NCBI GenBank assembly: GCA_000004985.1
Contig: GG738851.1
Reading direction: 5' to 3' (one strand)
Length of the DNA stretch: 64,000 nucleotides
Source of the DNA: Naegleria gruberi
Taxonomy: Eukaryota
Shown piece by piece: positions 1,328 to 50,008 of this stretch. The position numbers and the translations under genes were made by a program. The notes under the pieces were generated by a model. It saw only the letters and a program-made list of their open reading frames with translations, did not search any database and was not told the DNA's origin. Numbering within the stretch: the first letter of the stretch is position 1; the number at the start of each line of letters is the position of its first letter.

Positions 1328-1446
1328 AGACTACAGCACCACAGGTTCCCAAGTTGTCTCCAACCTCAGTACTGATGTGGCTCGACGATGCTTAACTTCT
1401 CAAATCGGACGGGATGAGGTGCATTCATCGTGATATGGCCATAGCC
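1328..1446 (-). rRNA. 5S ribosomal RNA gene, copy 1
   Basis: Reverse complement reads GGCTATGGCCATATCACGATGAATGCACCTCATCCCGTCCGATTTGAGAAGTTAAGCATCGTCGAGCCACATCAGTACTGAGGTTGGAGACAACTTGGGAACCTGTGGTGCTGTAGTCT, about 119 nt. It carries canonical 5S blocks (ACGGCCATA, CCCGTCCGAT, GAAGTTAAGCA, AGTACT, GGGAAC, GTGCTGTAG). The 5' and 3' ends pair as helix I, and a T-run pol III terminator follows. It is nearly identical to the copies at 20533 and 49890; a C to U change in helix I is compensated by G:U pairing. Confidence 0.85.
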
Positions 1447-1513
1447 ATTCATCTCTCAAATACAATGAATATAAAGAACATTAGTTATTAAAATATTGTA
1501 AACTGGATAAAAA

Positions 1514-2970
1514 ATGTCGCAACATAAGAACGTTGTTATCATTGGTGGAGGAGTGGCCGGTTTGTATGCTGCCAAAACACTTTCGGATAACCAAGTTTCG
1601 AATTTTATAATTTTGGAAGCAAGTTCAAGACTTGGAGGAAGAGTTTGCTCTGATTCCGAAAGAGGTATCGAATTAGGAGGTGTGTTTACAACCAACACAT
1701 TTAAATACTAATATTTAAACTACTTTTAAAACAGCTGAATATGTTCATGGAGAGGAAACTATTTTGTGGGATATTTTGGTCAACCAATTAAATGTGGAAT
1801 TGGAATTTAATCATGACATGACAAAACTAACTCCAAAAGAATGTGGATTGGGATTAGTAGTTGGTGCGTAATTTATCAAATTATTGAAATTGGAATTAAT
1901 GAAATTTCAAAGATGGGAAAATGCTTCAAGCTGACAATCCTATATTTGCAGAATTGGATGAAATTCTTGAAAAGCTAATAAATGATGAAGAGCTAAAATT
2001 TGCAAAAGATATGACACTTAAGGAATGGCTGATTTGGAGGGAAATTCCAGAAAAGTATCACTTGTTAGTTGACTCAACAATTGCCCAGGAAAATGCAACT
2101 TGTATTGATGTGTACAGCGCTAAGGGAGCTCAAGAAGATTTAATTGCTGAGTTTAATAGTGAATTTGGAGATGGGAATTACTTTCTTAAGGGAAAGAATA
2201 CTTTGGAAAATTTGATAATTCCATATTTGGTTAAATCCATCCAACAAGAACAAATTAGATTGGATTATGCTGTGGATTCCATTGATTACACTTCCAACCA
2301 AATCAAAATTAATGGAGGCGATATTATTTGTGATAAGATTATCCTCACTGTTCCATTAACAACTTTACAACATAATTTAATTCAATTTACTCCAGATTTA
2401 TCACCAATCAAAAAGCATTTAATTCAAAATCAATTCAACATGAATGGTGGCACCAAGATTATTCTCAATTATAAGAAACCATTTTGGAGAGAACAATTCC
2501 CAAATGTGAATGTTGTTTGTGTTGGAGATGATGATCCCTTAATTTCTCAATTCTGGTTTTCGAGCACATCTGAGGAACAATCTGAGAAATTTGGACACGT
2601 AATTACTGGATTTTCAATGAGTAATAGAGCAAATTATGGAATTGTGATGGGAGAGGAGAAGGTTAAGGATCATTTCAGAAAAATGATTCAAAATATTTGT
2701 GGATTAACAAGTGAAAATGATGGATTTATTGGTGGAATGGTAAGGAATTGGCAAGATGTTGAGCACATTTCTGGAGCTTATGCATCGGTCAATACTTCAG
2801 AAGAATCGAGACAAAACTATATTGGAAACCCTAGATTGGCCCTCTCTCAACCTATTGAATCAAAGATTTATTTTGCAGGTGAATTGTTCTGTACTCATTC
2901 GCCTGCTACTATTCATGGAGCAATGGAAACTGGAAGAGATGCTGCTTTGAGAGTAATAGCCGAAATGTAA
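1514..2970 (+). CDS. Flavin-containing amine oxidase family protein (polyamine/monoamine oxidase-like), multi-exon
   Basis: Exon 1 (1514..~1679) encodes a Rossmann FAD motif, VVIIGGGVAGLYAAKTL...ILEASSRLGGRV. Exon 2 (~1735..1863) reads AEYVHGEETILWDIL, and exon 3 (~1913..2970) ends with the amine-oxidase C-terminal FAD motif YFAGELFCTHSPATIHGAMETGRDAAL. The two introns are modelled by frame continuity at about 55 and 49 nt (GT..AG); the exact junctions are inferred, not verified. Confidence 0.75.
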
Positions 2971-3208
2971 AGTTTATTCGAAAGTGTTTGTTTTTACCTT
3001 AGATACTCAGTTGACCAGATTTCAGCTAATTCTTAAGAAATCAAAAAATTTTTAAGAAAGATTTAATTTCTAAATAGCCATCAATCACATGCCAATAAAT
3101 ATGGGGAAATAAAAGTCAAAAAGTCAATGACTAGTCTTGAAAGGTGTTTCCAAAAGTAATGTGAATGGCAACTTTGCACTTATTGAAATTGTTATTTAAA
3201 CCAACCGA

Positions 3209-3946
3209 ATGTTTCTAATAGAAAACAATAACAAAAAAAGAAACAAAATGATTATGCAAGAATTTGAACCAAAGAGAAGAAACACAAAGATTTCAACAAG
3301 TTTTGATGAAAGTCCAATTACTAATATTTCACTTTCGAATAAGAATACTTCAAGTTTCGATGAACAAGTTCCAATTTTCAAAGCAAAGAGACAAACACCA
3401 TTCCCATATTTGAAGAGAAAGTCAATCAGAATTGACTTGGTATTGAAGCAACAAAAACTTGCTCAAAAGAAGAAGAATGAACAAAAGTTATTGGAATCTT
3501 TGAGAAATGACAAGAAACTGTTAGAAAATGAAAACATGACCTTGAAGGGAAGAATTATGCAAATGGAATTTATACTTCAACAATTAAAATCTACCAGACC
3601 TAGCACACAAACTCACTCAACTCAACCAAAGAAATCTAACAAGTCAACTGACTCAATTCAATGCACCAAATGTCAAAAGTGCCTCTCCTCCAAATATTTC
3701 AAATATCATGATAGAATTTGTGGAAACACCAAGCTCAATCGTTTACTTTCAGAAACGGATTTGAAAAGATTACAATTTCTAAGAAAGAATCAAAAAACTG
3801 TATTAAATTTCTCACCAAAGAATGACTGGAGAAGAAAGAGGGAAGAGTTTTTGGCTCAAATTAAGAGCGCCCAAAAGAAGCACTCTTCAAATTGTATTAT
3901 TTTCTTTAGAACACAAGAAAAGAGTTTCTATAAATCAATAAAGTAA
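3209..3946 (+). CDS. Hypothetical basic coiled-coil protein with C-terminal C2HC (UBZ4-like) zinc-finger motif
   Basis: 245-aa ORF starting at ATG 3209. It is Lys/Arg-rich, has a heptad-like central region (LESLRNDKKLLENENMTLKGRIMQMEFILQQLK) and a CTKCQKCLSSKYFKYHDRIC motif of the form C-x2-C-x11-H-x3-C. Confidence 0.5.
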   Translation: MFLIENNNKKRNKMIMQEFEPKRRNTKISTSFDESPITNISLSNKNTSSFDEQVPIFKAKRQTPFPYLKRKSIRIDLVLKQQKLAQKKKNEQKLLESLRNDKKLLENENMTLKGRIMQMEFILQQLKSTRPSTQTHSTQPKKSNKSTDSIQCTKCQKCLSSKYFKYHDRICGNTKLNRLLSETDLKRLQFLRKNQKTVLNFSPKNDWRRKREEFLAQIKSAQKKHSSNCIIFFRTQEKSFYKSIK

Positions 3947-3985
3947 AACACTTGCTCATAAAAAATTGATAAAAGCGTTAAAAGA

Positions 3986-4069
3986 TCCGATGAGACGGAA
4001 TCGAACCGCCGACCACAGGATAACAGTTTCAGCTACAGTCCCATGCTCTACCAGCTGAGCTATCATCGG
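3986..4069 (-). tRNA. tRNA-Tyr (anticodon GUA) with 11-nt intron
   Basis: Reverse complement reads CCGATGATAGCTCAGCTGGTAGAGCATGGGACTGTAG[ctgaaactgtt]ATCCTGTGGTCGGCGGTTCGATTCCGTCTCATCGGA. The cloverleaf is complete: a 7-bp acceptor stem, D-arm GCTC/GAGC, anticodon loop CTGTAGA with GTA at positions 34-36, and T-arm GGCGG-TTCGATT-CCGTC. The intron sits after position 37, as is typical for eukaryotic tRNA-Tyr. Confidence 0.85.
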
Positions 4070-4211
4070 TTACATTAACTTTTCCAAAATATTCTAAATA
4101 AATCAAAAATACGATTCAACATTATGTTTAATATTACCCCTCCATGTGAATTAATACTTACCAATTCTATTACTGTACGTTCCCAATCAAAAACAATAAT
4201 CAAGAAAAAAA

Positions 4212-5279
4212 ATGAATCAATTACTCAGACGTTCTTCTCTCGCCAATTTTTCAAAAATCAAAAATTTCAAAGCCTTCATCATTTCATCAAATTGCTCTGC
4301 ATTGGCTGTGCATTGTAATTTTCCAGTCTTTGGAATGACATCCACTCCACAATATTTCCATTCCTCCCTACAATTAAAATCCAATACAGAAGCCGAAGAA
4401 AAGAGAAGAAGAGAAAAATACGAATCTGTTATTATCGAAGCACGTAATGCCTATTATAATAAGGAATTTGATAAAGCCATCATGATGTGTAGTAATGTTT
4501 TAAAATTGGATAAAGATTATAAGGATGCTATCGGACTTCGTGGACTTTGTTATTATTATGTTGGAAAATATGAAAGTTCTTTGGCTGATTTGGATAAATA
4601 TTTGGAACAGAATGTTATTGATTTTGAAACTACATTACATAGAGCTTATTGTAATTTTAAATTAATGAGATTTGAAGATATGTTAACTGATTTGAATGCT
4701 ATTATTTTCGTTACTTCACCATCTGAATTTCCAAATAGATTTATTGATGCTCGATTAATGAGAGCTAATTATTATTTAATGACCAGGGATGTTGATTTGG
4801 CATTTGCTGATTTACATGCTATTGAAAATAATTTGGGAAATTCAAGTTTTGCCTTGCAAAATGAACAACTTGCTCAATTCTATGAAGGAATTGCTCTTTG
4901 TTATGCTGCCAGATCACAACACGATAAATCAGCATTCTACTTGACTGAATTAATTGAAAAGGGATACAAAAATCAAGGAAAGACACCAGATGCTAATATT
5001 AATTTGAAGAGAGCTCTCTCCTATGTCGAATGTTGCAATTTTGAAAAAGCCATTGAAGATATTGACCTTTACATTTCCTCTAAAGGATTTATGGAAATGC
5101 CAGGTGTCTTTATTTTGAAAGCCAAAGCACTCTTTGGAATGAAACAATACCAAAAAGCACTCGAAGAAGTATCTACCTTTGAAGAATTGGACTTTGTCAA
5201 GAGAAATCCCTTCATGATTGCACCAGAATGGTTAGACGAAGCCAAACACATCAAGGAAGAATGCAAAAAGCATTTATAA
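4212..5279 (+). CDS. TPR-repeat protein (possibly mitochondrial; basic N-terminal presequence-like region)
   Basis: 355-aa ORF with ATG at 4212. It contains several 34-residue TPR-like units (AYYNKEFDKAIMMCSNVLKLDKDYKDAIGLRGLCYYYVGKYESSLADLDKYLE...). The N-terminus MNQLLRRSSLANFSKIKNFKAF is Arg/Ser-rich. Confidence 0.6.
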   Translation: MNQLLRRSSLANFSKIKNFKAFIISSNCSALAVHCNFPVFGMTSTPQYFHSSLQLKSNTEAEEKRRREKYESVIIEARNAYYNKEFDKAIMMCSNVLKLDKDYKDAIGLRGLCYYYVGKYESSLADLDKYLEQNVIDFETTLHRAYCNFKLMRFEDMLTDLNAIIFVTSPSEFPNRFIDARLMRANYYLMTRDVDLAFADLHAIENNLGNSSFALQNEQLAQFYEGIALCYAARSQHDKSAFYLTELIEKGYKNQGKTPDANINLKRALSYVECCNFEKAIEDIDLYISSKGFMEMPGVFILKAKALFGMKQYQKALEEVSTFEELDFVKRNPFMIAPEWLDEAKHIKEECKKHL

Positions 5280-5439
5280 ATCAAAATAATCACTTCCACA
5301 CAACCCACTTTCCTCAAATAATAATAATACTTGAACAATTGCCACATCAACCACAACCAATAGGTGAATTGTACTTGTGTGTGAAACTTTTCACACAAAC
5401 TGTTGTTATCCAACCCATCAAAGAACTTCAATTAAAAAA

Positions 5440-6815: not shown

Positions 6816-6822
6816 TGTTGTT

Positions 6823-8847: not shown

Positions 8848-9156
8848 CAAAGACTTTTTTTTGTAGTTTGAAAAGAAGAGAAATTGGCGCCATTTTAAGA
8901 CAGCAGAAAAAACGAAACTCAAGAATTGGTTGTCTAGTCAAATTTTCAGATTGTCATGCAACAAATATCATTGGAAAGATAATAGTTTTCTTGATCCTAT
9001 CCAAAATGTTTCAAGCAAGTATTATCTTCTTCCTCTTGATGAAATAAAATTGATTAAAATTATTTTAAAGTTTTTTTGTTATTTTGTGATTGTTGTTGTT
9101 GTGAATTTTCTTCATCGTTAATAAATTAATTCCCTCTAGTATATATTTACTAAAAT

Positions 9157-9375
9157 TTAGTGATGTTTATCATCGTGACCATGTCCGTGGTTTCCGTGAT
9201 GTCCACCAGATGAAGGAATAACGCCAACTTTTTCAAGTCCAAGATAAAGAACAAAAGCAGCAATACCCCAAGAAGCTCCAGGCCAAACAAGACCCCAATT
9301 ACGTGGGCTACGGATAGCTTTGCTAAAGTTGAGTTTTGGGTGTTCTCTCCAAGTATCGTATTTTTCAAAGACCAT
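9157..9375 (-). CDS. NADH dehydrogenase (complex I) beta-subcomplex subunit 3 (NDUFB3/B12)-like small His-rich single-TM protein
   Basis: 72-aa ORF from ATG 9373-9375: MVFEKYDTWREHPKLNFSKAIRSPRNWGLVWPGASWGIAAFVLYLGLEKV...HHGNHGHGHDDKHH. It aligns to human NDUFB3 in RDPWGRNEAW, FKWGFAAFVVAVGAEYYL and the C-terminal KKHH, and carries a His-rich tract. The overlapping ORF 9150..9368 is an out-of-frame artefact. Confidence 0.5.
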   Translation of the reverse strand: MVFEKYDTWREHPKLNFSKAIRSPRNWGLVWPGASWGIAAFVLYLGLEKVGVIPSSGGHHGNHGHGHDDKHH

Positions 9376-9672
9376 TTTTTTAAAATATTTATTTTTAAAA
9401 TTTGGAATTGATTTTATTGTTTTCTTTGTTTGATAATCAACAAAACAGAAAGTGAAAACACTTGTGCTAAGCTTACTTGAAACAACAAGAAAAGATATCA
9501 AATTTATAATATTTAAAGACCCAGTTGTATTGTTTAGGATTGAAATAATTTAAAGAAAATAAATACATGATATTCTCAATGTGTGTTGAAAATTATAGCA
9601 TCATATTCAATTCTTGTCCATTAGTTCATGTCGGAATGTGTGTTTGATTATTCTTATTTTCTCTCGGTGTAT

Positions 9673-13857: not shown

Positions 13858-14576
13858 TTTTCGATATTTATTTGATAGAAAAGAAACTAAAAAAACGTTA
13901 TATTCGATTAGTAGACAATCTCTAGTTTGAATTTATGTTGTTTTTTTCATTGTTTCCATTCAACTTTGCTCTTAAATAATTAAATTCTTTACTAGTATTG
14001 ACAAGAATTTTTTATTTTTAGCTGCACGGTTCAATGTTAAACGTTTTTCCTTTTTACTGAAATGTTGAATGGATTCTAGAAGGCAACGGTCAAGTGATGA
14101 CGAAAGCAATTATCATCGTACCTCCAACGTTAATTTGTTAATTCTGAAAAACTGTTCTTGCAATGTTCTATTTACAAGATTTTCAATGATTTTCTGAAAG
14201 TGTTGTTGATCCGAATGTGATTTAGAATGCAGTAATTGACAAGTTATTTGAAAACATGGTTAGATAATTGATCTTTCAGGTTCCTTTTCAATTTGAATGT
14301 GTGTTTCTAAAAGGTGTGAGTGGGCCCCAGCGTTTTACTTTTATTAGAAACCAAATAAGATTCAAAAACTATTGACGTAATTTACCTTTTTATTTAAATT
14401 GGACAAGAACATGGAAATTCTAACTCCTTTTGAATAATAGAAGATCTATAGGAATAGAATTTCCTCAAACCTAAATTAACCTTTTTTGGAAATTGGTCCT
14501 ATTGAGATATTTGATCAACTCACTTTTATTGGCCCTTGCATTGCTTTTCATCAAACCAAACAAGAAAAAAAGAATA

Positions 14577-15845
14577 ATGCGATCCAGAGTTAAATTTTGC
14601 CTATCATTGTTTGTTATTTTGATGTTTTTGTTTGTTGTCTATTGTCAAGTAGACGAAAGTCCAACACCAGAGTTTTCATTAGAAACACCAACACCTGAAG
14701 AATCCTCAGCTCCTGAGCAACCTACTCCAGAACAATCAGTTAGTCAACCAACACCTGAAGAGTCAAGTCCAAATGAGCAGCCTACACCTGAAGTATCAGA
14801 TACACCAATTCCAGAAGAATCTACTAGTCAACCAACACCTGAAACCTCAAGTGAACAACCTGAGCCTGAAGCTTCTACTGAGCAACCAACACCTGAATCA
14901 TCAACAGAAACTCCAATTCCAGAAGAATCTTCAAGTCAACCAACACCTGAAACTTCAAGTGAGCAACCAACACCAGAAGAATCAACTAGTCAACCAACAC
15001 CAGAAGTATCTGAAACTCCATTTCCAGAAGAATCTACTAGTCAACCTACTCCTGAGACATCTAGTGAACAGCCAACACCTGAATCATCAACTGAACAACC
15101 AACACCAGAAACATCTGATGTGCCAACACCTGAAACATCAAGTGAACAACCTGTTCCAGAAGAATCTACTAGTCAACCAACACCTGAAACTTCAAGTGAA
15201 CAACCAACACCAGAAGTGTCAGATCCACCAGTTCCAGAAGATTCTAATAGTCAACCAACACCTGAAACATCTGTAGATCAACCAACTCCAGAAGTATCTG
15301 AAACTCCAATTCCAGAGGAATCAATTTCACCTGAAACATCTGAAACTCCACAACCAGAAAGCTCAACTGAAACACCAACACCTGAAGAATCAATTGCTCC
15401 TGAACCTTCTGAACCAACAACTCCAGAAACATCAAGTGAACAACCAACTCCAGAGGAATCTTCCACCACTCAACCAGAAACATCTTCAACAACTAGTCCA
15501 GAAACTTCTCAAGAAACCACTCAACCAGAATCATCCACTGCATCAGAAAATCCAACCACTCCAGAATCATCAAGTCAATCCACTGATTCCACTGACTCAA
15601 CTGATGATACAAGCTCACAAACAGAAGATTTTGAAAATACCCTCTTCTCAGCAGAAGAAGATGAAGACGATTCAATTATCGGAGCTCAAGTATTAAGCAA
15701 TGCACCAAGTTTCAAGATTAGAGTTAAGAATCAAGCAAGATGTAAACGTTCCTTGCAGGGATGTGTTGCCTTGATGAAGAATTGTAAGCAAGAACCTAAA
15801 TTCTTCTTGGATGGAAATGGATGTATTCTATGTGAATGTCATTGA
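14577..15845 (+). CDS. Secreted Pro/Thr/Glu/Ser-rich (mucin-like) repeat protein with C-terminal 6-Cys domain
   Basis: The true ATG is at 14577 (MRSRVKFCLSLFVILMFLFVVYCQVDE, a signal peptide); the 14493 start in the ORF table is a TTG. About 30 tandem copies of PTPE(E/T)S(T/S)SQ / PTPETSSEQ-like nonamers follow. The C-terminus is CKRSLQGCVALMKNCKQEPKFFLDGNGCILCEC. Confidence 0.7.
   Translation: MRSRVKFCLSLFVILMFLFVVYCQVDESPTPEFSLETPTPEESSAPEQPTPEQSVSQPTPEESSPNEQPTPEVSDTPIPEESTSQPTPETSSEQPEPEASTEQPTPESSTETPIPEESSSQPTPETSSEQPTPEESTSQPTPEVSETPFPEESTSQPTPETSSEQPTPESSTEQPTPETSDVPTPETSSEQPVPEESTSQPTPETSSEQPTPEVSDPPVPEDSNSQPTPETSVDQPTPEVSETPIPEESISPETSETPQPESSTETPTPEESIAPEPSEPTTPETSSEQPTPEESSTTQPETSSTTSPETSQETTQPESSTASENPTTPESSSQSTDSTDSTDDTSSQTEDFENTLFSAEEDEDDSIIGAQVLSNAPSFKIRVKNQARCKRSLQGCVALMKNCKQEPKFFLDGNGCILCECH
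14690..15560 (+). repeat. Coding tandem repeat array (27-nt / 9-aa PTPExSxxQ units, higher-order ~105 nt)
   Basis: Repeated DNA of the form ccaacacctgaaacttcaagtgaacaa / ccaacaccagaagaatctactagtcaa. Several spurious overlapping ORFs on both strands (14773..15276, 15244..15492, 15394..15696) arise from this low-complexity region. Confidence 0.8.
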
Positions 15846-17050: not shown

Positions 17051-17074
17051 TCCTATAAATAAGGTATTCCACAC

Positions 17075-20347: not shown

Positions 20348-20532
20348 CGGAGGAAGAAGAATTGAAGTTGGAGAGGTGTCCTCTATAAATCTTTTTTTAC
20401 TGTTGTTTTTGAATTGTTATGATTGTTCAATTAAGGAAATTTACATTCCCGCCAAATATTAAATTCTCATTGTAAAGATCTTGAATCGAACAAAAAATTT
20501 GAGTTAAAGTGATATTTGTTGAAGAAAACAAA

Positions 20533-20651
20533 AGACTACAGCACCACAGGTTCCCAAGTTGTCTCCAACCTCAGTACTGATGTGGCTCGACGATGCTTAA
20601 CTTCTCAAATCGGACGGGATGAGGTGCATTCATCGTGATATGGCCGTAGCC
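20533..20651 (-). rRNA. 5S ribosomal RNA gene, copy 2
   Basis: Same ~119-nt 5S sequence as copy 1 (GGCTACGGCC variant), with an oligo-T terminator on the sense strand. The 16 bp immediately upstream of +1 (TTAAGAAAGTGAATGG) are shared with copy 3. Confidence 0.85.
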
Positions 20652-20742
20652 ATTCACTTTCTTAATCATTCACTCTTCAACTCTATCAGAAATCTAGTTA
20701 ACAATTTACAAAACACAAACTTTCTAATAATCTACTATTTAT

Positions 20743-21288
20743 TTAAACAAAGAATGAAACAATAATCATCAATGCAATCAAAATGCTTGATCCAATCATC
20801 TTTTCAGCACCAGAACAAACATATTTAGTTCCAGAAAGACAAACTCCATTATATGCAGAATAATCAACAGTTTGTTTAACACTTGAACAGGCACTATCAT
20901 AATAAACAGTCAAATATCTACAGGCAGTACTCTTATAAGAACCAGCACCTGGAATAACAACACAAGTATCCAATGGGAAGATTTGTGAGACAACTAAATT
21001 GGAAGTAGCACAAGTAGTGTCAGAATAAATTGATAATTGTAAAGTATTCTTGGAACCAATGGAAGGAACAGTTGAAGTACATTGACTAGTGGTATAGAGT
21101 GAGGTGGTGTTACTACCAGTACAGGTTGGGTTGGAAGTACAGTTAGAAGTTGGAGTGTAGAGATCCAACATTGGGAGAGAGCTTGAACACTTGGAGTCAG
21201 TGAAGAGGGAAGATCTGATGTATTGACCACTGACTGATGTGATGGCAATGAGAGCAAAGAGGACAATGGAGAGAATGATAGTTTTCAT
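20743..21288 (-). CDS. Small secreted Cys-rich surface protein with predicted GPI anchor (signal peptide + C-terminal hydrophobic tail), paralog A
   Basis: 181 aa. It has a signal peptide (MKTIILSIVLFALIAITSVSGQY), about 14 Cys and a C-terminal hydrophobic tail (SSILIALMIIVSFFV). It shares the pattern QY.R..L..DS.C...LD.Y..T.NC...KNTLQ..IY.D.TC...SQI.P.DTC...KST.C...Y.D..C..VK.TVDY.A.NGVC..GTKY.C with the gene at 22345. Confidence 0.7.
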   Translation of the reverse strand: MKTIILSIVLFALIAITSVSGQYIRSSLFTDSKCSSSLPMLDLYTPTSNCTSNPTCTGSNTTSLYTTSQCTSTVPSIGSKNTLQLSIYSDTTCATSNLVVSQIFPLDTCVVIPGAGSYKSTACRYLTVYYDSACSSVKQTVDYSAYNGVCLSGTKYVCSGAEKMIGSSILIALMIIVSFFV

Positions 21289-22344
21289 TTTCTTGAGATT
21301 GTTTGTTTTTTTGAGTGAAGAAATGAGTTGAAAGTTTTGTTGAATTTATTCGAAAGTGCAAGTTCATTAATTTCATGTGGCTTCACTAATGTGACAAGTG
21401 GTTACAACGAGTGTAAGATGCAATTATTGAAATAAAATGTAAAAGGAAACTTTTCCAACTCAATTCCTACATGAAATGTGACAACTCGAAGAAATTTAGG
21501 TTTCGAATATTTCCTTCCTTACATTTCGTTCAGTGAAAAAGGTTGTAAATTCATTCAATACACAAATTACAATATCTCATCCAATTCTTTACAAAATTAA
21601 AGGTAACCCACAGCTGGCAATTTCTAGCTGGTTTGTTTGCTTGTGTGGTTAACGTTCACTAGATTCAAAATTTACCCATCAGTTGAGGAAAAAATTTATT
21701 TCCCACTTTCCAGCTTGCTTCCAACCCACAAAAATAAAACAAGAATTTTTAACAACAACAAGCTAAATTTTTATTTGTCTTATATTCGTGTTGGTTGAAA
21801 GCCAACTCTAACCCATAGGTTAAAGTACTGTAATTCTAACACCAATCCATATTCTCCAAAACCTACATGAAACCATCCTAAAGAGGTGGTTTTAGTATGT
21901 TAGTACTACTATGTTTTGGATTTTGATGTTGTGGACTAATTTTCGAGTTATTTCCCCAAGTTTCAAAGGCCAAATTTCATTCGCACCTGTCATCGCACTG
22001 GTTTGACGGATTCTTGAATCTTCTCACACAGATTCTCATGCACCAATACAATTGAAAAAACACCAGCGTAAAAACCGAGCTGTGGGCAGTTTTAATTTTG
22101 TAAAGAATTACATACCACCATTCACAATTATTTTGAGCAACTGAAATACGTACCACGTAATCCATCTCCATTTACACTTCACTTGTTACTAACAACATGT
22201 CAACACCATTCAAAAACCTCAAAAAGGAAAGCAATATTCACCCTTTAATATAACTACATATCAAACAACAACAACTACAGTAAAGCATAGGGAAAAGTTG
22301 TGAAAAAACATGTTCATATAATATATTTAAGGCATTTAATTTAT

Positions 22345-22881
22345 TTAAAAAACAATGGAAAGCAAAGCAGCAACCATCATTACAACAGTGGTAAGACCAA
22401 TCTTTTGAGCATTGTTACACAAGTACTTGGTACCCAAATTACAGACACCATTGAAAGCAGCATAATCAACAGTGTTCTTAACAGTCTTACAGTCAGCATC
22501 AGAGTAGAGAGTCATAGTCTTACATCCAGTACTCTTCATGCTTGAACCATCAGTAGATGAAATACATGTGTCAATTGGCAAGATTTGTGAGATGGAGATG
22601 GCTCCACAGGTGTTATCAGCATAAATGTTGACTTGCAAAGTGTTCTTACCACCAACTGGGACAGCAGAAGCACATGCAAGAGAGGTGTAAACAGATGTGG
22701 AATTGACACAAGTCACTGGAACAATCGAGCTGGCGCAATTGTCAGTTTTAACATACATATCCAAGTAAGCTGGAGAAGCAGTACATGTTGAATCCTTGTA
22801 CAAGGTGGTTCTCATGTATTGAGCATTGACGCTAGCAAGAGCAGCAATGAGTAAGGCAGCAATAATGAAGATGGATTTCAT
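22345..22881 (-). CDS. Small secreted Cys-rich surface protein with predicted GPI anchor, paralog B (tandem duplicate of 20743..21288)
   Basis: 178 aa (MKSIFIIAALLIAALASVNAQY...GLTTVVMMVAALLSIVF). It has the same Cys spacing and architecture as paralog A, lies 1 kb upstream and is in the same orientation. Confidence 0.7.
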   Translation of the reverse strand: MKSIFIIAALLIAALASVNAQYMRTTLYKDSTCTASPAYLDMYVKTDNCASSIVPVTCVNSTSVYTSLACASAVPVGGKNTLQVNIYADNTCGAISISQILPIDTCISSTDGSSMKSTGCKTMTLYSDADCKTVKNTVDYAAFNGVCNLGTKYLCNNAQKIGLTTVVMMVAALLSIVF

Positions 22882-23128
22882 ATTGTTGAGTGTTTTGTTT
22901 TTTTAAGGCATCTTTAATATTCACAGACTTTGTGCATGTTTATTGCCTTAAAAAAACAAAACACGATTCTGCACTACGGCTCCTTACTGCGGCTGTTGAG
23001 CAGTTGATGAACCTTCAAACACTACAAGCAAATGAAGCTTTTGGTCGTAACAAATTAGTCTTGCCTACCCTAGTACAGGTCGCGTTTAGTGTTTTTTAGA
23101 ACAGATAATTTACAGAAAGTATAATAAT

Positions 23129-25280
23129 TTATCGATGTTTGAGTTTGTGTTTCAATTGTCTCTTGTCTGAGAGTGCCTTCTTCCACTTCTTTTCGTTTTG
23201 ACCCATGGTATTCTTGTGTCTGACGTTTCTGGACATCTTCAACATCATGTATGGCTTGTTCTTCTTCTTTTGCTTTTGAGTTTCTCCAGGTTGTTCCCAC
23301 TTTCTTCTGTTGAATTTCTTCTTTTCTGGTTCAAATTCATTGTCTGAATCGTCACCCTTAGAAATGTCACCAATATCATCTTCGTCAACATTTTCATTGC
23401 TAAAGATTGGGGTTTCTCTCTTTCTCTTCTTACCCATAAGCTTTTCCATTTCCTTGCTCTTTTTGAGTTTCTTAATCAACTCAAAGTCTTCTTGTGTAAG
23501 AATTCTGGTTTGATCAATTCTTGGGCCCTTTGGTTCCTCTGAAGCTTGTTCACCATCTTCAATGACTTCTTCTTCTTCACTGTCCAATTCGAAAACATCT
23601 TCCAAGTTCAACAATTCACCACCTTCCTCGTTATCAGATCCCTCAGAATCATCAGAGTCATCCATAGCAATATTGACATCATCTTCACCGTCGCTTGGAA
23701 CATCAATCCATTCACCTTCTTCATCAGAATCTTCACCATCAACAGCCATGAGATCCTTTTCAGATTCCTTTCTCTTATTGTATTCTTCCAATAATTCAAT
23801 GCCATCAACACCTTCAGCAACTCTTTGAGTACCAAATTCTGGAATGACTGCTTCAGGATCGTGATCTTTACCTCTGTCTTTCTTGTTCAACATCTTTGGA
23901 GAAAGTTCTCTGAAGAGTGTTATAATACCTCTAGCAGCATGGAAAACTTGTTTATCCTTATGTTTAGAATATTGAGATAAATCTCTCAAGAGGGTCTTGG
24001 TCATAACTCTTGGTTGTCTTGAACAAATAACTCTAATTGTATTCAAACCAGCTGCAATAACTTCTGGTTTGGAATGGTCATTAGCAAAATTGTTAGCAAT
24101 AGTCATGACGACTGGATGAATAACATCAGGAGGAACAAAATCGTGAACTGATTGGGCAGTAATGGCAAGAATCTTGGTAACATCTAAAAAATTGAAATAT
24201 ATCAGAAATTAAAATGTCACAAAACTTACTGGCTTGGGCAGGGAGTAAATATTTTTGAATGAAAGGATAAAAATTGAGAAGAACTAATTGATTTGAGGAA
24301 ACACATCTTGAAATAACGTCCAACATTAAAATTCTTACTTCAAATTTGTCATTTGAACTCTTCAATTTAGCAAAGAGTTTTTCAGAGAAACCTTGTGGAT
24401 CATTCAACATGTTGAGAACGTTCAATGATTCAATTTCCATACCCTTTTCCTTATGTTTATCCTTCTTTTTAAGTTGTTTGAGAGCTTTCTTAAATTTGTT
24501 TTCCTTTTTCTTTGTCTTTTTAGAGTGAATATTGTTAACTTTAAACTTTAAATCTCTAATCAAGTGACCAAGATCTCTATCATCTGATTTTTGTTTTGTT
24601 CCGTCTTCATCTTCTTCAGCTTCATCAACTAATTCACCCAAGAAGAATTTAAGTGCAATAACAACAAGAGCAGTATCTTCAGCAAAACATGATTGGGAAA
24701 TAACATTGACACATCTATCATCATTCCAAATACCTCTTCTATAAAGTGTAATTAAAAGTTGCAAACTCTTCTTTGCAGCAATACGGAATGAATCTTTCAA
24801 CATGGAAAAGACAAAGTTTTGCAATGATCTATTTACATTAGGATTCTTCTTCTTCATATTGATTTTAGTAATATCGGAGAGAATGTGTTTATAAACCATA
24901 CTTCTAAGAGTCTTATCATGTACTCGGAAAAGTTTAAATAATACTGGTATTAAAGTTTTAGAGTCAAGAATGTCGTTATTACGGAAAGCAATGAGTGTGA
25001 TAGCAAGTTGTCTTCTCAATTTTGGTTCTAATTCTAATTGTTTTGTTTCCAACAAATCCAAAATCATTGGTGCTGCAGTTTTGGTTTCTGCTTTATAAAC
25101 TTTGCAAGCAACACTCAAAAATTGCAACAATTTGACAAAATATTTAGCATCATCGGCTGGTCTCAATTTTGCAACTTCGGTTTGATTTTCCAAGTGTTTC
25201 AATTGAAGGAGGAAATCATCTTTATAAGCCTTTGGATCTTTAAAAACTTGTTCTTGAAGATGAAGGAGATCGATACTCAT
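23129..25280 (-). CDS. SDA1: SDA1 homolog (pre-60S ribosome export / actin organisation protein), 2 exons
   Basis: Exon 1 (24230..25280) encodes MSIDLLHLQEQVFKDPKAYKDDFLLQLKHL...VLLNFYPFIQKYLLPAQA and ends at a GTAAGT donor. A 46-nt intron (24184..24229) ends at a TTTAG acceptor. Exon 2 (23129..24183) encodes VTKILAITAQSVHDFVPPDVIHPVVMTIANNFANDHSKPEVIAAGLNTIRVICSRQP..., then an acidic region and a basic C-terminus. Confidence 0.8.
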
Positions 25281-25504
25281 TTTTTTTGAAGGTCAAAAAT
25301 AAAAATATTTTTGTTGAACAAGACAAAATTCGGATCGAGAGAATATTCATTATTTGATGAGAAATATTTGAATATTTCAAATATAATGATGAGAAGAGCT
25401 TTTTCACCATCGTTGGACCAGATTACATGATAAATTAAATTTGTTCGGAATAATGACTATTTGATGAAGAATTTAATATCAAATTTCTAATAAGAAAAAA
25501 AATA

Positions 25505-27135
25505 ATGAAAAAGTTGTTGCTTTCTCATCGAATTCAGCTTCTTCTTCGGTATTATCTAGAAGAGGAGTTCAACATATAGAAAGTAGTATTAGGAAGGGAA
25601 GTGGAGCATTAGGATTTTCTCTATTGAATTCTTCAAAGAATAGAGATTTTCATGGGAACTCTTATAAGCGAGGATACAATTTTAAAGGAACAGAATTGGT
25701 CAGAGATTTCATTCATGATTCATTATATAATCCAGAATATGGATACTTCAACAAGAGTCATGAATTAATTATCAGTCATCCATTGTTTGAAGGAAAGGAA
25801 AATGTGGGAGAAATTTCATCATCCGAAGCCTTTGAAGAATTACTTTTAAATAATACTCTTCCAAGAGAAGAACAAACAATTTTACCATTTACTGAATTAG
25901 AAGATCATTTGGATTACTTGGAAAATTTATCTGAATTGTATCAAAGAGGTCCACAAAGTTGGGGTACTCCAATCGAAATATTTCAACCTTACTATGGTAT
26001 TGCAGTGGCAGAACACATTTTGAAAACACAATATGGATCATCTATTAATCAATCTTTGGATAGACCTTTGAAGATTTATGAAATGGGTGGCGGTATGGGC
26101 ACTTGTTGCAGAAATATTTTGGATTATTTGGAGACTGATTATCCAGAAATTTACAAGAATACAGAATATCACATTATTGAAATTTCTTCACAATTACACG
26201 AGCAACAGAAAATCAGATGTGCTCATCATGTAACCAATGGAAAACTCAAATTACATCACGACTCGTTTATGGATTGGAAACAAGTGGAGCAGGATGAATG
26301 CCACGTTATTGCTATGGAAGTTTTGGACAATTGTGCTCACGATAAGATTTCAATTGATGCTGATGGAAATGTTAAGGAATGTCATGTATTTTTCGATAAG
26401 GGTAAAAATTACTATGAGGAAGTTTACCTTGATTGTAGAGACGAGTTAATTATTAGATATTTGACGCTGGCTGGGGTTATTGAGACTTCTAACACAAAAA
26501 CCAAATTTTCTCCTAATTTTACCTACACCTCTCTGCAGGATAAGACTAAAGGAGCATTTACCAAACTGATTCAATCATTCTCTTCCAAATCCACAAATGG
26601 GATGAGATCACTCCTCATGAACTCCATTGGAGGAGACCATGTATTTTACATCCCAACAGTACAATTACAAATTATTGAAAAATTACAACAAAATTTCCCA
26701 AAACACCACTTTATTTGTGCCGATTTTGACTACTTGGGAACAGATGAATCTGGAGAAAGCAACAGACCACTCGTACAAAAGAAATTCAAATTCATGAAAA
26801 CCTCTAATTTATTAAGAAAGATCAGAGAGAAACGAACACTCTTTCTAAGTCCTGAAGATATCTCATCAGAGGACAATTTCTCCATAGAGTCACATGCATT
26901 CAGATCGTATCTAGTTCCAAAAGGAGAGTGTGATATTTTCTTTGCCACCGACTTCAATATCATGCAACAAGTTTACAGCAAAGTTTGTCAAGATCAAGGT
27001 GGCCTAAGAGGATCACTCGTCATGAAATCATCTCAATTCATGAAAGAATATGCAGAGTATGAAAATTTTACTACAAAATCAGGATACAATCCATTATTGA
27101 AAGATTACACAAACTTTTCATTCTTCCTCAGTTAA
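25505..27135 (+). CDS. NDUFAF7: NDUFAF7 / MidA-family mitochondrial protein arginine methyltransferase (complex I assembly factor)
   Basis: The main exon (~25593..27135) encodes ELVRDFIHDSLYNPEYGYFNK...PIEIFQPYYGIAVAEHIL...KIYEMGGGMGTCCRNILDYL...HIIEISSQL, the DUF185/MidA methyltransferase fold. The reported start at 25624 is a TTG. A short 5' exon (25505..25548) encoding MKKLLLSHRIQLLLR, a mitochondrial presequence, probably joins via a ~44-nt intron with a GTATTA donor. That junction is inferred from frame only. Confidence 0.7.
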
Positions 27136-43989: not shown

Positions 43990-44040
43990 ATCTCAAATTA
44001 CTTATTAATGGTTCAACTTGATTAGTAAATTTAAACCTTA

Positions 44041-46485
44041 TCATTTATTGTTGAAAAATTTAAAGAAATTCCAAGATTTGTTGTCTTTACAGTTTTTGTT
44101 AATGTATGTAATTAAATGTTGTTTACCCTTTTCCGTTGCATACTTTTGAACGAATTCTATGGATGCCCCTTTTTTAATGAGATTTTGAGCCCACTCGGCA
44201 CTGCCATTAATATCAGCCACAGTCACCAATGCACTGCTCAACACATTACTTGATAAATTGCAATTATTGAATATCCACTCAAAAATAATAGTATTTCTAT
44301 TCTCAATCGCAATCTCTAAAGGATAACCACAATCAATGCCTTGTTCTTCGTGAAAATGTGGATAGTTATTCGAATACCATTGAATTGCTGGAAGATATTC
44401 AAGGACACAAGCTCTATGAAGAGGACCATCAATATAGTACATGTCTTTTGTTAAGGATATTTTCTGGCCATCTATGTTAATAGTTTCTAATTTTGGAGTT
44501 GACTTCAAGGCATCAATTATTTTTCCATTTTCCTCAATAATAGCAATAAAATACAAGTATTTTAAATTATTTGATAATACTGAATTAGTATTTTTCACAT
44601 TAATATCTTCAAAATATTCCAATAAATTTGAATAATCAACATTGTCCAGTACGTCCAATAACTCTAAAACAGAAAATGATTTTACAGAAAATTCTTTAGC
44701 AATTCTGGTTAAATGTTCTGGTTCTTCTGATTTTTGTTGGTTGTAAGTAGTTGTGGCAATTTCAAACATTTGGTTATCATCCAATAGAGATGCAAAAGTC
44801 ACTTGTCTGATATAATTCTGTTGATATTGTTTTCTACACCAATTGATTCCAATTAGTGTTGTAGTAGAAGGAGCATTTTCAATCTTCAACTGATTCCTTA
44901 TTGAATCCAAGTCTATTGAAGGTCCATCACTAAAGGCAATAAATATAGTCTTTAAATGAGAGGGGAAATAGTTATTTGCTACCTGCAAACATGAATCTAG
45001 TAATGCTGGTTTCGAACAATCAATCAATAATATCATTGCTTTTGCATTTCTCATGTATGTTTCAAAAATAATTTTAAATCTTTCTTGTTCTGCTAAAAAC
45101 CAGCATATAAACTTATGATCAAAGCAACTAACTAACCTAAAATCAACACCAATCAGTGAGTGAGAATTCCTATAAATATTTAACGATTTTGTAATGTTTG
45201 TATGTGCCGGTGATCCATAGAATGTTGCCAAACATAAATGGTACACAGGTAATTCAATTGGCTTTTCGATAATGGTCTGATTTGCTTGTTGAATTAATTG
45301 TTCAATAGAGGGACGATCATTTGGTTGCAAGCTCATCATTTTCAATATTAGCTCAATGAGATGATCAGAATATTTCATACGTTGATATTTTACAAAATAA
45401 TCCTTCAATAACTTTGGATGTTTACACATTGAATTACATAGAGTTGATAAATCACGTGTCATTAAGTAATATAACGTGACACCTAATGCAAAAATGTCAG
45501 ATTGAGTAGAATATGGTTGTTTGATATCCAATATTTCATAATCAATAATTTCAGGTGCTAAATATTTAAATGTCCCACTCAATTGTGAAATTTCTGTTGA
45601 ACTATTGGTGTTAGTTTTTGCAAATCCAAAATCACTCAAACAAACTTGAATATTATCTTGTTTGGTATTAATGGATTTGATTAAAATGTTTGCAGGTTTA
45701 ATATCTTTGTGTATGATATTAAATTTTTGAATATGTTTTAATGCATTTCCCATTTGTTCTATAATTAGTAATATCATTTTTTCAGATGGAATGTTATTTG
45801 GATTTTTAATGAAATAATCGAATAAGTTTCCAAATTCTAAACAATCCATTTCAATACATAAAAAAGATTGATTGTTGCTAATGAAAGCAGTATGCACACG
45901 AATAATATTCTCATGTGATACCTTAACTGTTTGTATAGCCTCATGTAATGCTTGATTCATGTCAAATTCCAAAGATGGATATATTACTTTGACAGCTGCA
46001 ATACTTTGATTTTTTCTTTTCACTTGATAAACAATTCCGAATGCTCCACTTCCTAACTCGTTTATAATTGTTGAGTATCTATTTAATAATTCTTCTTTTA
46101 CATTTTTGCTATTATTATTCAAACTATTAATATTATTATTCAAACTATTAATATTATTATTCAAAGTATTATTATTATTAATATTAATATTATTTGAAGT
46201 ATTAGTAGTAGTTGTTGTATTTTCAAATTTCTTTATATTCTTGATCAAATTACAAATAGAATGAGCATGAATTGGTTTAATACCTAATTGAATAAGAGCC
46301 TGTTCATCGGAATAGAGAAGTGTAAAGCCTGTACATTCTTGTTCAATTAGTACTTATTGAAGTTATTAACTTGGATGAATAATTGTGAAAAACATACTGT
46401 CAACTACACTCTTGGGGCAACCATTCCGAAGTAGCCAATTACCCACCCGTTCTGTTGACCAAGAGGTAAAGTCATTGTCGTCCAT
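44041..46485 (-). CDS. Ser/Thr protein kinase fused to a degenerate Rab-like pseudo-GTPase domain and C-terminal ANK-like region; 2 exons
   Basis: The main exon (44041..46283) has a poly-Asn tract and a kinase domain (LGSGAFGIVYQV...AAVKVI, HKDIKPANILI, DFGFAK, APE). Next is a Rab-like block, HLCLATFYGSPAHTN...SLIGVDFRL...ICWFLAEQERF...MILLIDCS...IFIAFSD, aligning to Rab G1, IGVDF, WDTAGQERF and NKxD with the P-loop and NKxD degenerate. The ORF-table start at 46248 is a TTG. A putative 5' exon (46398..46485) encodes MDDNDFTSWSTERVGNWLLRNGCPKSVVD with a GTATGT donor. A 114-nt intron ends at acceptor AATTAG at 46284-46285. Confidence 0.7.
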
Positions 46486-46644
46486 TAACGTTATTTTTTT
46501 TTTGTAAAGCCAACAAAAAGTTAATTTTCATTCTATTCGAATCCTTAAAAGAAAAGTTAAAGTTTGATCACTCTTAATCATTGTGTTGTTGAAATTATTA
46601 CAATTTTTAGGTAAAGAAGAATCAAGAAATGTTATTACTATTTG

Positions 46645-47788
46645 TTACAAATCAACTCCAGAATAGAATAAAAACTTGTTCAACAATCTCATGTACCAAT
46701 GATCTATCAGAATGTGTTTCTCATTATTAGATGAGAATAATTGCTCACAAATTACTGAAGAAACTTTTTGAGGAGATTGAGCATTGTCCATCATCTTTTT
46801 AGCCACTTGATAGAGTTCCATATAAGGTTTGTAAAATTGTGAGCTTTCACTGAATGGTTTCATATTCAAAATTTGGGTTTTTGCAAATCCTGGCTCAATA
46901 CCTATTTCAATAATTTATAAATCATTGTAAAATTGAATGAAAACTTACAAGTAACTCTCAATCCTTGAATAGATTTGAATTCTCTTCTCAAACCGTCTGA
47001 AAATCCATAAAGTGCAAACTTGGTGGTACTGTAAAATCCAGTAAATTTAACAGCACTGTAACTTGCAGCAGATGCAACATTAATTACAATTCCTTGATTA
47101 GATTTTGAATCGTTCTCTTGGTTGTTTGAAATCATCATTGGGTAAATACATCTCAACATTCTAATAGGTCCTAAAATATTCACTCCAAATACATCCAACA
47201 TTTCAGTTTCGGATAATTCAGCTAATCCTGCTGTGTTTTTTGTTTTTGGTGATGAAGTAATTCCTTAATTAGACCAAATACTTGAGTGATATTCCATTCC
47301 AACAATTGATTTTGAATTAATTTTGCAGTGTTTTCAACCTGTTCATTATTCGTTATATCACATGCAAATAATTTCAACTTTTCACAATTATCCGAAAGTT
47401 CTTGCTCGAAAACTTGTTGCATTTGTGAGAGAGAATAATCAATTACAATAACCTTTGCATTCCATCTCGAACCCAATAATTCTTTAGCAACCAAAGATCC
47501 TTAATTAATTAAATATTTAATTAATATCATTATCATAAATACTTGAAATATATTTAAAAACCTACCAATCCCACCCGAGCCCCCAGTAATTACAATTACT
47601 CTATCCCGAGATGAAATATCACATTTTGGTGAATTCCTTCTCAACATCCAATACAACACTGAGGTTGCAATTGTTGTTCTCCACGGATTTTCCCTCATGA
47701 CATTCCAAATATCTGCTAAATAATGATAAACACCACTATTTAAAAGCCCAGAAATTATTTGTCCACCACCAATATTAAATTTCTCCAT
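46645..47788 (-). CDS. Short-chain dehydrogenase/reductase (SDR) family protein, multi-exon (>=4 exons)
   Basis: Exon 1 (47566..47788) encodes MEKFN...VIVITGGSGGIG, the TGxxxGxG motif, with a GTAGGT donor. A 66-nt intron follows. Exon 2 starts at ~47499 and encodes LVAKELLGSRWNAKVIVIDYS...ACDITN. Exon 3 (ORF 46902..47201) encodes VNILGPIRML...NVASAAS...YSTTKFAL, with the catalytic YxxxK. Exon 4 (ORF 46645..46869) is the C-terminal tail. The internal junctions are approximate. The canonical NNAG motif was not located. Confidence 0.6.
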
Positions 47789-48787
47789 TCGATTTTTCTT
47801 AAATTTTTTTATAATTTTTAATTTCTTTTTAATTTCCAAAAGATAATAATATTTAGGCGCGGTGATGAAAAACCGTAGTGATGAAGAATTATTATCATTG
47901 TAAATACAATTATCTACGTATTTCCTACAGTAATATCCATTTTTTACCTTTCAATACTTTTTCATTACTCTGCTAACTTTGAACTTGAAAAGGGAGTTGA
48001 AATTTCCAAGCAAATGATCCATAATTTCCAGAATCAGAGAATGCACTAGGGTGTGACCTAAATTGTGAATTCCATAGGTGAGATTCAATTACCTTTGGGC
48101 ATTTTTCATGATTTTTTCACACTTGCAAAATTTGTTTGAAGGTGGTGGTTTCGAATAAAACGCAGGACTTCTTTGAATTCATTGAATAACAAATAAAACT
48201 GAATTCTATTCACTACATTAAGCCATTAATAAGAAAAATAAACATAAGGAATAAAAAGACAATCACTAATTTCGGCCCAACACTAAAAAGGCTTTTTGCA
48301 AACCAAATCAGTTTTGTAAACATTGGTTCAGTGAGAAGATACAGTTTTCCTTTACTGCAAAGTTTGCCGCCAATCAAATTTAAAAAATCCGCCAAGGCTT
48401 GTGGTAATATCGACGACGAGTTTATTTTTAAATCTTTGACTGAAAAAAATATCATCACAACTGCTTCTCTGCTACACCAAAATATCCTACGAATTTGAAA
48501 AATCTTTAATATTCATTTTCGAAGGTGCAGAAGATACTTCTAATCATCAACATCACTCTGATTTTTCACATTGAATTATTGTGTGAATTCAAATTTTGAC
48601 TAGCCTAGTCCACCACCTACTAGTAATAACGATCTACCTAGTAGCAAGTGTATACTTTCGGTTATAACCTCAAGACTACCAACCTCCTCTTGCAGAAACA
48701 CAACAGTATATTGTTGACTCCATCTTCTGTCTAGACTTTTTTGCACATCCCTAACTATTTATTCAATATTTAAACAACAACAACAAC

Positions 48788-49765
48788 ATGATGACTATGA
48801 CTACAACTTCTCCACTGATGGTCTCATCAACAACTGCTAGTAATTCAACAACGACGCCAACGTCTGTATCACGTGCAAAAGACATTTCTACAATACCAAC
48901 AACAACAAACGATGATGATAGCCTGCTGTCCAAAAGTCTGGGACACTACAATCCTGCACAAGGAACAAATATGCCTCGTGGATCTTACCATGATATTAAA
49001 TCTAGATATTTCATGTCATTGAATCTGTCCTCACCACATAACACCACTCCCAAAACTCCTCCACAACAAACATCTCCATCCCTCCCAAATTCATCTGGTG
49101 TCATGAATACATCTGGTTCCCTCCTCACTAACAATATCAATAGAACCCAAAGAACGAGTAGCTTATCCTCCCAAATTACCAGACAAACTTCTCCTGGACA
49201 AAAACCTGAATCCAGAGAAAGAAGACAAACTTCCTATGATTTCAACAGACACTCAGAGGCTATTCCAATTCCTAGCAAAATGGCTGTACCAGTAGCTGCT
49301 GAAAGTCTAATGTATAATAATAATGGAACCTATGACCCATCAGTAGTTCCTAGTTTAATGACTGATGATTCAATGCCAATGATGTTCGATGGTGATTTTA
49401 GTTTTACTGATAGTAGCGAGAGTGGTAGTATTGATTTGTCACCTTTTTTCACTTCAAACACTCAATCCAATACTTCGTCCGTTGCTTCTTCCAAACAAAT
49501 TGCTAAACCAGGCAAATCCAATATGAAAGGAAGTGCCTTGAATCCAAATACTACCAAGAAGAGCGTCTCTATTAAGATAGAGACAACAACTTCTGCAGTT
49601 AAGGATTCATCAGTTTCTTCAACGGATTCTTCAGAATCCTCAGAAGAAAGATCCCCTCTCACGCCAAATAGAACTATCATTCCACCTCACTTAATGAACA
49701 ACCGTTCAGATTTCTCATTGTACAGACAACAACAAAAATATAATACTAAAGTTTATAAAATATAA
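48788..49765 (+). CDS. Hypothetical Ser/Thr-rich low-complexity protein (325 aa)
   Basis: ORF with ATG at 48788. It is about 35% Ser/Thr with no recognisable domain. It may be regulatory or intrinsically disordered. Confidence 0.4.
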   Translation: MMTMTTTSPLMVSSTTASNSTTTPTSVSRAKDISTIPTTTNDDDSLLSKSLGHYNPAQGTNMPRGSYHDIKSRYFMSLNLSSPHNTTPKTPPQQTSPSLPNSSGVMNTSGSLLTNNINRTQRTSSLSSQITRQTSPGQKPESRERRQTSYDFNRHSEAIPIPSKMAVPVAAESLMYNNNGTYDPSVVPSLMTDDSMPMMFDGDFSFTDSSESGSIDLSPFFTSNTQSNTSSVASSKQIAKPGKSNMKGSALNPNTTKKSVSIKIETTTSAVKDSSVSSTDSSESSEERSPLTPNRTIIPPHLMNNRSDFSLYRQQQKYNTKVYKI

Positions 49766-49889
49766 ATAAACAGAGAAAAAGATAAATAATGATTCTAACC
49801 ATTGAGCAGTATTAATTCAAACCTAATCTTTCAATAATGATAAAGTGCATTTGTAGATTTAATATTGAATAGTATTACCAAATAAAAAA

Positions 49890-50008
49890 AGACTACAGCA
49901 CCACAGGTTCCCAAGTTGTCTCCAACCTCAGTACTGATGTGGCTCGACGATGCTTAACTTCTCAAATCGGACGGGATGAGGTGCATTCATCGTGATATGG
50001 CCGTAGCC
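49890..50008 (-). rRNA. 5S ribosomal RNA gene, copy 3
   Basis: Identical to copy 2 across the ~119-nt 5S body, with the same conserved 16-bp upstream element and oligo-T terminator. Confidence 0.85.

Follow-up and report, generated by a model that had tools for sequence, protein, structure and literature searches.

Genes for 5S ribosomal RNA (rRNA) that lie scattered outside the ribosomal DNA (rDNA) occur in Neurospora and Acanthamoeba, among others. The same kind of arrangement is documented for Yarrowia and S. pombe (PMC2566860), and 5S organization varies greatly among protists (Drouin and Tsang 2012). The closest described system is that of Naegleria gruberi itself, whose genome was searched by BLAST by Feng et al. 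(2012; PLoS One 7:e36878; PMC3369914), yielding the 279 5S genes of their Table S1. Here, we set beside these systems three 5S genes found in a stretch of 64,000 nucleotides of N. gruberi DNA (assembly GCA_000004985.1, contig GG738851.1), referred to as the window.

Like the genes of the Yarrowia/S. pombe type, those of Naegleria stand outside the rDNA unit as scattered single RNA polymerase III (pol III) units with unique flanks, in tens to hundreds of copies. From Yarrowia they differ in lineage (Heterolobosea) and in upstream sequence, and whereas 48 of the 108 Yarrowia copies are fused 3' of transfer RNA (tRNA) genes, there is no tRNA gene within 2.5 kb upstream of any copy in the window. 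The 18S, 5.8S, and 28S genes of Naegleria reside on an extrachromosomal circle of ~14 kb with a copy number in the thousands (PMC5805870 and related papers), which leaves the 5S genes as the only chromosomal rRNA genes. The papers on this circle state that Naegleria has no chromosomal rRNA genes, thereby overlooking the 5S. Feng et al. reported an internal control region and a TATA box in the N. gruberi 5S genes and no linkage to the rDNA unit, and scored the 5S arrangement as 'tandem' in their Table 1. Our literature search found no explicit description of dispersed Naegleria 5S genes.

Judging from the sequence, we consider it quite likely that the three genes are ordinary and probably active pol III-transcribed members of a family of ~279 solitary or loosely clustered chromosomal copies, that the short box upstream of them is a general pol III element, and that their spacing and orientation came about by chance.

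Three 5S rRNA genes and their structure

An Rfam scan of the entire window at the gathering threshold gave four matches, namely three 5S genes (RF00001) and one tRNA gene. The 5S genes and their likely terminators are as follows:

1328..1446, minus strand: 5S copy 1, the U6·G113 variant; RF00001 104.1 bits; Naegr1 scaffold_7:193327-193443 in Table S1
1324..1327, minus strand: likely pol III terminator of copy 1; T-run (T5 including the last gene base), then a second T3
20533..20651, minus strand: 5S copy 2, major sequence type, identical to copy 3; RF00001 105.4 bits; scaffold_7:212532-212648
20522..20532, minus strand: likely pol III terminator of copy 2, TTTGTTTTCTT; T4 including the last gene base, then a second T4
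49890..50008, minus strand: 5S copy 3, major sequence type; RF00001 105.4 bits; scaffold_7:241889-242005 in Table S1
49884..49889, minus strand: likely pol III terminator of copy 3; T6 (T7 including the last gene base)

A preliminary description, made from the letters of the DNA, had placed three near-identical genes of ~119 nt on the minus strand at exactly these coordinates and proposed a cmscan with RF00001 as a check. The scan agrees: scores of 104-105 bits are well above the gathering threshold of 38, and every copy covers positions 1-120 of the 120 in the model. With a permissive E-value, the Rfam scan revealed no further 5S copy or pol III gene in the window, the only extra being a sub-threshold snoRNA-like (small nucleolar RNA-like) match.

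Over their 119 nt, copies 2 and 3 are identical, and copy 1 differs from them by a single base. This C6 to T change (U6 in the RNA) meets a partner, G113, that is the same in all copies, so the C6-G113 pair becomes a U6·G113 wobble. The substitution in helix I had been noticed before and called compensated; the change is real, but the compensation is not. All three copies fold into the three domains of 5S rRNA with standard pairs only in the helices (zero non-standard pairs in each).

Part of the internal control region can be recognized as well. At nt 50-64 the genes agree exactly with the box A consensus that Feng et al. applied, and a box C-like sequence with 2 mismatches to the consensus is located at nt 80-97. 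For the intermediate element, the consensus is too degenerate to judge; nt 67-72 show no match. Counting the last gene base, each T-run behind the genes comprises at least four T. Each copy is thus a self-contained unit with internal box A, a box C-like sequence, a T-run terminator, and a short upstream region.

The copies are solitary, each in a short intergenic gap (copy 2 in 395 bp between two minus-strand open reading frames (ORFs), copy 3 in 517 bp between two plus-strand ORFs). The starts of successive copies are 19205 and 29357 bp apart, and the intervals are occupied by long ORFs with eukaryotic Pfam domains (amine oxidase, SDA1, MACPF, EGF-repeat kinase, PAS-cyclase, ABC transporter, Wntless-like protein, and Hsp70). 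The copies are therefore non-tandem and separated by ~19 and ~29 kb of protein-coding DNA, just as first described. Neither 18S, 5.8S, or 28S rRNA genes nor spliced-leader or small nuclear RNA genes are found beside the 5S copies; elsewhere in the 64 kb, Rfam gives just the one tRNA and the one sub-threshold snoRNA.

The repeat family shared by the three copies is 164 nt long. Alignment of their 300-nt flanks uncovers no extended homology, and the likeness fades within ~35 nt upstream and ~11 nt downstream. Calling the flanks otherwise unrelated was consequently right as far as extended homology goes but not for the nearest upstream sequence, where copies 1 and 3 match at 20 of 35 positions. 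In short, the three elements are ordinary 5S rRNA genes: genuine, full-length, and independent.

All three were already catalogued. The scaffold_7 entries 193327, 212532, and 241889 of Table S1 differ by 19205 and 29357, which are exactly the spacings in the window, and the window therefore corresponds to scaffold_7, ~192001-256000, in plus orientation. The similarity value of copy 1 in that table is slightly lower, as expected from one substitution. The family of Feng et al. thus includes the same three loci with identical spacings; Table S1 gives no strands, and neither the AAGTGAAT box discussed below nor its occurrence at a tRNA gene is described there.

The upstream box and its counterpart at a tRNA gene

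Besides their internal boxes, pol III genes of other organisms carry short external elements. In S. pombe, tRNA and 5S genes have a TATA box at about -30, and Arabidopsis 5S genes possess TATA-like, -12, and -1 upstream elements. The Naegleria genes resemble these in that 5S and tRNA genes have in common, besides the internal boxes, a short external sequence lying no more than ~35 bp from the start. The upstream regions in the window, together with the tRNA gene that is its only other pol III gene, are listed here:

20652..20665, minus strand: upstream box TTAAGAAAGTGAAT (-14..-1) of copy 2, exact match; AAAGTGAATG spans -9..+1
20666..20680, minus strand: degenerate tandem second box TTGAAGAGTGAATGA (-29..-15) of copy 2, read from the sequence; it replaces the T-rich block of the other genes
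50009..50042, minus strand: upstream region of copy 3, T-rich block (-34..-13), then box TTAAGAAAGTGAAT (-14..-1); 23/35 match to the tRNA upstream region
1447..1480, minus strand: upstream region of copy 1, T-rich TGTTCTTTATATT followed by purine-rich TTTGAGAGATGAAT; matches copy 3 at 20/35 positions and the tRNA upstream region likewise at 20/35
3986..4069, minus strand: intron-containing tRNA gene, most likely Tyr-GUA; RF00005 55.1 bits; also called by ARAGORN; own T-run
4073..4108, minus strand: tRNA upstream region ...ATATTTTGGAAAAGTTAAT|G with the architecture of the 5S upstream regions; the G at 4073 aligns with 5S +1, and AAAGTTAATG lies at 4073-4082

The window contains two exact instances of TTAAGAAAGTGAAT and no more, at 20652-20665 and 50009-50022, immediately before copies 2 and 3, which are identical over exactly these 14 nt and then diverge. 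A box of 16 bp had been proposed. The common sequence is indeed exact, but only 14 nt of it are upstream, the terminal GG being nt 1-2 of the gene. Copy 1, said to keep TGAATGG, has only TGAAT in common with the box, and over the whole box it matches at 8 of 14 positions.

The tRNA gene at 3986-4069 deserves a closer look. ARAGORN, run with bacterial settings, calls it Thr(TGT). On manual reading, the loop of the anticodon arm runs C-U-G-U-A-G, followed by an 11-nt intron and then A, giving the anticodon GUA (Tyr). The gene has a C1-G72 pair and A73, both of which are typical of eukaryotic tRNA-Tyr, and tRNA-Tyr genes normally bear an intron. Upstream it reads ...ATATTTTGGAAAAGTTAAT|GTAA, followed by the mature 5' end; a leader of four nt is a normal length for a pre-tRNA.

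When the tRNA upstream sequence is slid along three independent 5S flanks in 13 registers, one sharp peak appears, with 5S +1 falling on the G four nt before the mature tRNA end. In this register, the match to copy 3 is 15/20 over the last 20 nt and 23/35 over the last 35 nt; the corresponding values are 12/20 and 20/35 for copy 1 and 11/20 and 18/35 for L009, a metagenomic 5S locus introduced below. The probability of at least 23/35 is 0.0006 under a null of intergenic-like window DNA and the best of 13 registers. Furthermore, the 10-mer AAAGTKAATG has 4 matches in the 64 kb against 1.19 expected, and three of the four (at 5S copies 2 and 3 and the tRNA gene) directly precede pol III genes. 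The consensus of the five upstream regions (four 5S and one tRNA) consists of a T-rich stretch from ~-34 to -13, AAGTgAAT at -8..-1, and G at +1. The best-conserved part is purine-rich and abuts the start (-8..-1, AAGTGAAT), in contrast to the canonical TATA box at -30, and its function is a candidate one.

Since a 5S gene cannot convert the flank of a tRNA gene, this likeness argues for a shared function and suggests that the box is a general, start-site-proximal pol III element rather than a 5S-specific one. The earlier idea of a pol III promoter element thereby stays plausible, with the correction that a neighboring tRNA gene has it in the same register. That copies 2 and 3 agree perfectly over 14 nt is probably also due to shared ancestry or to gene conversion extending a little beyond the gene.

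A working model for transcription would be the following. The internal boxes would recruit TFIIIC and TFIIIB, while the ~35 bp upstream (T-rich from -34 to -13, then AAGTGAAT at -8..-1) may help to position TFIIIB and pol III. The upstream region would also help to fix the start at the G that follows AAT, and termination would take place in the T-run. Uniformity of the 5S sequence may be maintained by selection, by gene conversion, or by both.

Several points weigh against reading the box as a promoter element. The candidate motif is drawn from just five upstream sequences of the Naegleria type, and both it and the register were chosen with the data already in view. Within the box, copies 2 and 3 do not count as independent; the T-rich block is missing from copy 2, and copy 1 and L009 match the box at just 8 of 14 positions. 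A related but more distant heterolobosean tRNA gene (L024) does not have such a motif, and all that Willaertia tRNA genes display close to the mature end is a loose ...AATG.... In addition, Feng et al. (PMC3369914) reported subunits of TFIIIB and TFIIIC in N. gruberi, but their BLAST search did not detect TFIIIA, and the genes may therefore not follow the classical type 1 mechanism in its usual form.

A scan with an internal 5S 24-mer found 21 loci in metagenomes, of which only L009 is of the Naegleria type, the others being from different organisms, and it gave no matches in the genome-contig and viral-contig collections. The 5S gene of L009 is 99.2% identical, and its upstream sequence, ...TTAACATAAGTAGAT, is the one that matches the box at 8/14. 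An environmental contig (L023, ENA ERZ929261) is 97% identical to window positions 20625-25691 and has the same sequence before copy 2. Copy 2 and its upstream sequence hence persist in a 97%-identical environmental strain.

This contig also shows that a close N. gruberi relative is present in its metagenome. At 4663-5377, once the first 27 nt of 5S copy 2 are passed, it leaves the window sequence and runs on as an inverted copy (89% identical) of the neighboring region with a 181-amino acid ORF. A deletion is not favored as the cause; the break is most likely a repeat-induced assembly artifact at the repeated 5S sequence. A further Naegleria-like contig (L026) contains no RNA genes, and two other contigs, L025 (the best ENA cyclase match) and L027 (P0003), were set aside as their gene content looks bacterial.

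Alternative readings of the upstream sequence

The strongest competitor holds that the box has no function at all and is merely a flank carried along in 5S duplication or overwritten by conversion tracts that run past the gene. We regard this as possible, if unlikely. It would account well for the abrupt end of identity between copies 2 and 3 after exactly 14 nt, with copy 1 (5 nt) and L009 keeping progressively less, and near-identical gene bodies across loci, with 161 of the 279 Table S1 entries at the modal similarity value, fit ongoing homogenization. What it does not explain is that a tRNA gene, which 5S genes cannot convert, matches the 5S flanks over its upstream 35 nt in one sharp register, nor that three of the four 10-mer matches in the window precede pol III genes. 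Duplication or conversion and a promoter role for the box are not mutually exclusive.

A bolder version of the promoter reading may be entertained tentatively, although we consider it unlikely. The 5S and tRNA genes of Naegleria might share an external core promoter of ~35 bp, built from a T-rich block and then AAGTGAAT abutting the G start, which may be needed for transcription and could replace the unfound TFIIIA. If the absence of TFIIIA is real, the external element would carry more weight. In mechanism, Naegleria 5S genes would then have more in common with pol III genes that use external promoters than with those of the classical type 1. Our literature search returned nothing on Naegleria pol III promoters.

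It could also be that only some of the copies are active and that copy 1, which carries the substitution and a degenerate box, is silent or decaying. The U6 variant and the 8/14 box match point in that direction, and Table S1 holds many entries that are partial or of lower similarity. Nevertheless, the U·G wobble leaves helix I intact, and copy 1 has retained the T-rich block, TGAAT, and the terminator, which makes its silence rather improbable. The reading that we prefer remains that of three ordinary and probably active genes with a general pol III element in front of them.

Genome-wide distribution and orientation

The published coordinates allow the three genes to be placed within the whole family. 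The 279 entries of Table S1, roughly 264 of them full-length, are spread over 117 scaffolds. Gaps between copies on one scaffold, 162 in all, run from 462 bp to hundreds of kb around a median of 34 kb, 22 of them being shorter than 3 kb. Mini-clusters with 2-3 kb spacing exist, for example on scaffold_41 at 297689, 300171, and 303199. The 'tandem' score in Table 1 thus contrasts with the coordinates of the same paper, according to which most copies are solitary and tens of kb apart. In short, the family is scattered genome-wide with some mini-clusters, with the caveat that real 5S arrays may be collapsed in the assembly and that ~40 copies sit on tiny scaffolds.

The preliminary description had singled out the regular dispersal in one orientation as unexplained and called for a genome-wide map. 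The map shows 279 copies and typical spacing. The gaps of 19 and 29 kb are typical and unequal, the chance of finding three of three copies on one strand is 0.25, and we see no anomaly in spacing or orientation.

One may still wonder whether a common orientation and a spacing of tens of kb form a functional higher-order arrangement, related, for example, to replication co-orientation or chromatin-domain boundaries. In its favor are the three of three copies on the minus strand and the over-dispersion of 5S genes relative to Poisson scatter, with sixteen 64-kb bins holding at least three copies versus 6.4 expected (for a genome of 41 Mb, as cited in PMC10161547). This is nonetheless very improbable given the strand probability of 0.25 and gaps (19.2 and 29.4 kb) that are unequal and near the 34-kb median of a broad distribution. 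Moreover, 5S positions are not conserved. In Willaertia magna the pair of Hsp70 and Wntless-like (WLS) genes is conserved, and its 22-kb locus contains five tRNA genes but zero 5S genes, from which it follows that the position of copy 3 is not conserved between Naegleria and Willaertia. The spacing and common orientation in the window would then be chance features of a scattered family.

Lastly, although dispersed near-identical copies of a pol III transcript might call to mind 5S-derived retroposons, short interspersed nuclear elements (SINEs), or processed pseudogenes spread by reverse transcription, such an origin is scarcely credible here, as each of the three is complete in length, intact in structure, and followed by a terminator of its own, with neither an A-rich or LINE-like (long interspersed nuclear element-like) tail nor a tRNA part or an extra body, flanking direct repeats (target-site duplications) do not exceed 6 nt, and the shared sequence runs past +1 into upstream DNA that a copy made from the transcript would lack. 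The 5S-derived SINE3 and AmnSINE1 are alike in being dispersed 5S-related sequences, but they combine a 5S-like head with an unrelated body, a LINE-related tail, and target-site duplications, none of which is seen in the Naegleria copies. The initial view of independent gene copies, belonging neither to a SINE or retroposon nor to a longer mobile unit, therefore holds, given a family of just 164 nt with unique flanks. A Yarrowia-type tRNA-5S fusion is ruled out: Rfam and ARAGORN detect no tRNA fused to or adjoining any copy, the nearest lying 2.5 kb upstream of copy 1 with a T-run of its own.

Significance

The three genes are real and ordinary, and for this genome a 2012 paper had already reported them together with the copy number of the family and its location apart from the rDNA. 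Scattered 5S genes being a familiar arrangement, the discovery value is small. The upstream motif shared with the tRNA gene is the only addition to published knowledge, and it is a lead. As a cheap and testable pol III promoter candidate, it is of interest in an organism with few genetic tools that apparently misses TFIIIA. The balance of ~4,000 rDNA circles versus ~279 chromosomal 5S genes per cell would lead one to expect strong 5S promoters.

Neighboring genes and further observations

The mitochondrial-type Hsp70 encoded at 55964-57913 is 100% identical to an N. gruberi protein, and the next named relative is that of Willaertia magna (80%). The Hsp70 and Wntless-like genes are adjacent both in the window (25624-57913 compared) and in Willaertia magna JBEGDK010000119.1. 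A Methyltransf_28 gene is situated 7 kb from this pair in Willaertia and 27 kb from it in N. gruberi, where the intervening DNA holds 5S copy 3 as well as the MACPF, EGF-kinase, cyclase, and ABC-transporter genes. Three of the five tRNA genes of the Willaertia locus are near-identical, with a common upstream sequence.

The SDA1 homolog at 23129-25280 (minus strand) is read as two adjoining ORFs, 24126-25280 and 23129-24106, which are 19 nt apart. The split is also present in the metagenome strain, and a short intron fits better than a frameshift. The ORF at 14493-15845 (plus strand) contains ~14 imperfect repeats in 27-nt steps with codons rich in Pro, Thr, Ser, Glu, and Gln (...CAACCAACACCTGAA...), and its product is reminiscent of mucin-like or cell-surface proteins. 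An acidic GAA/GAG (Glu-rich) repeat tract and repeated GGTGGCTTTGG units are found within 61474-61531 and 63657-63951. The latter units encode Gly-Gly-Phe-Gly and resemble FG repeats, and the coding sequence continues past the end of the window.

Finally, a second low-GC organism (33-38% GC) appears in the VFQM/VFQO metagenome contigs (L005-L008, L010, and L012-L019), with 5S genes ~80% identical to those of Naegleria. Each contig has one 5S gene with unique flanks, and helix II occurs in the variants GCATAG, GTGTAG, GCGTAG, and GCTGAG. Immediately before the genes, conservation is limited to a pyrimidine-rich ...TTTC. These copies seem to form a further 5S family that is both scattered and heterogeneous.

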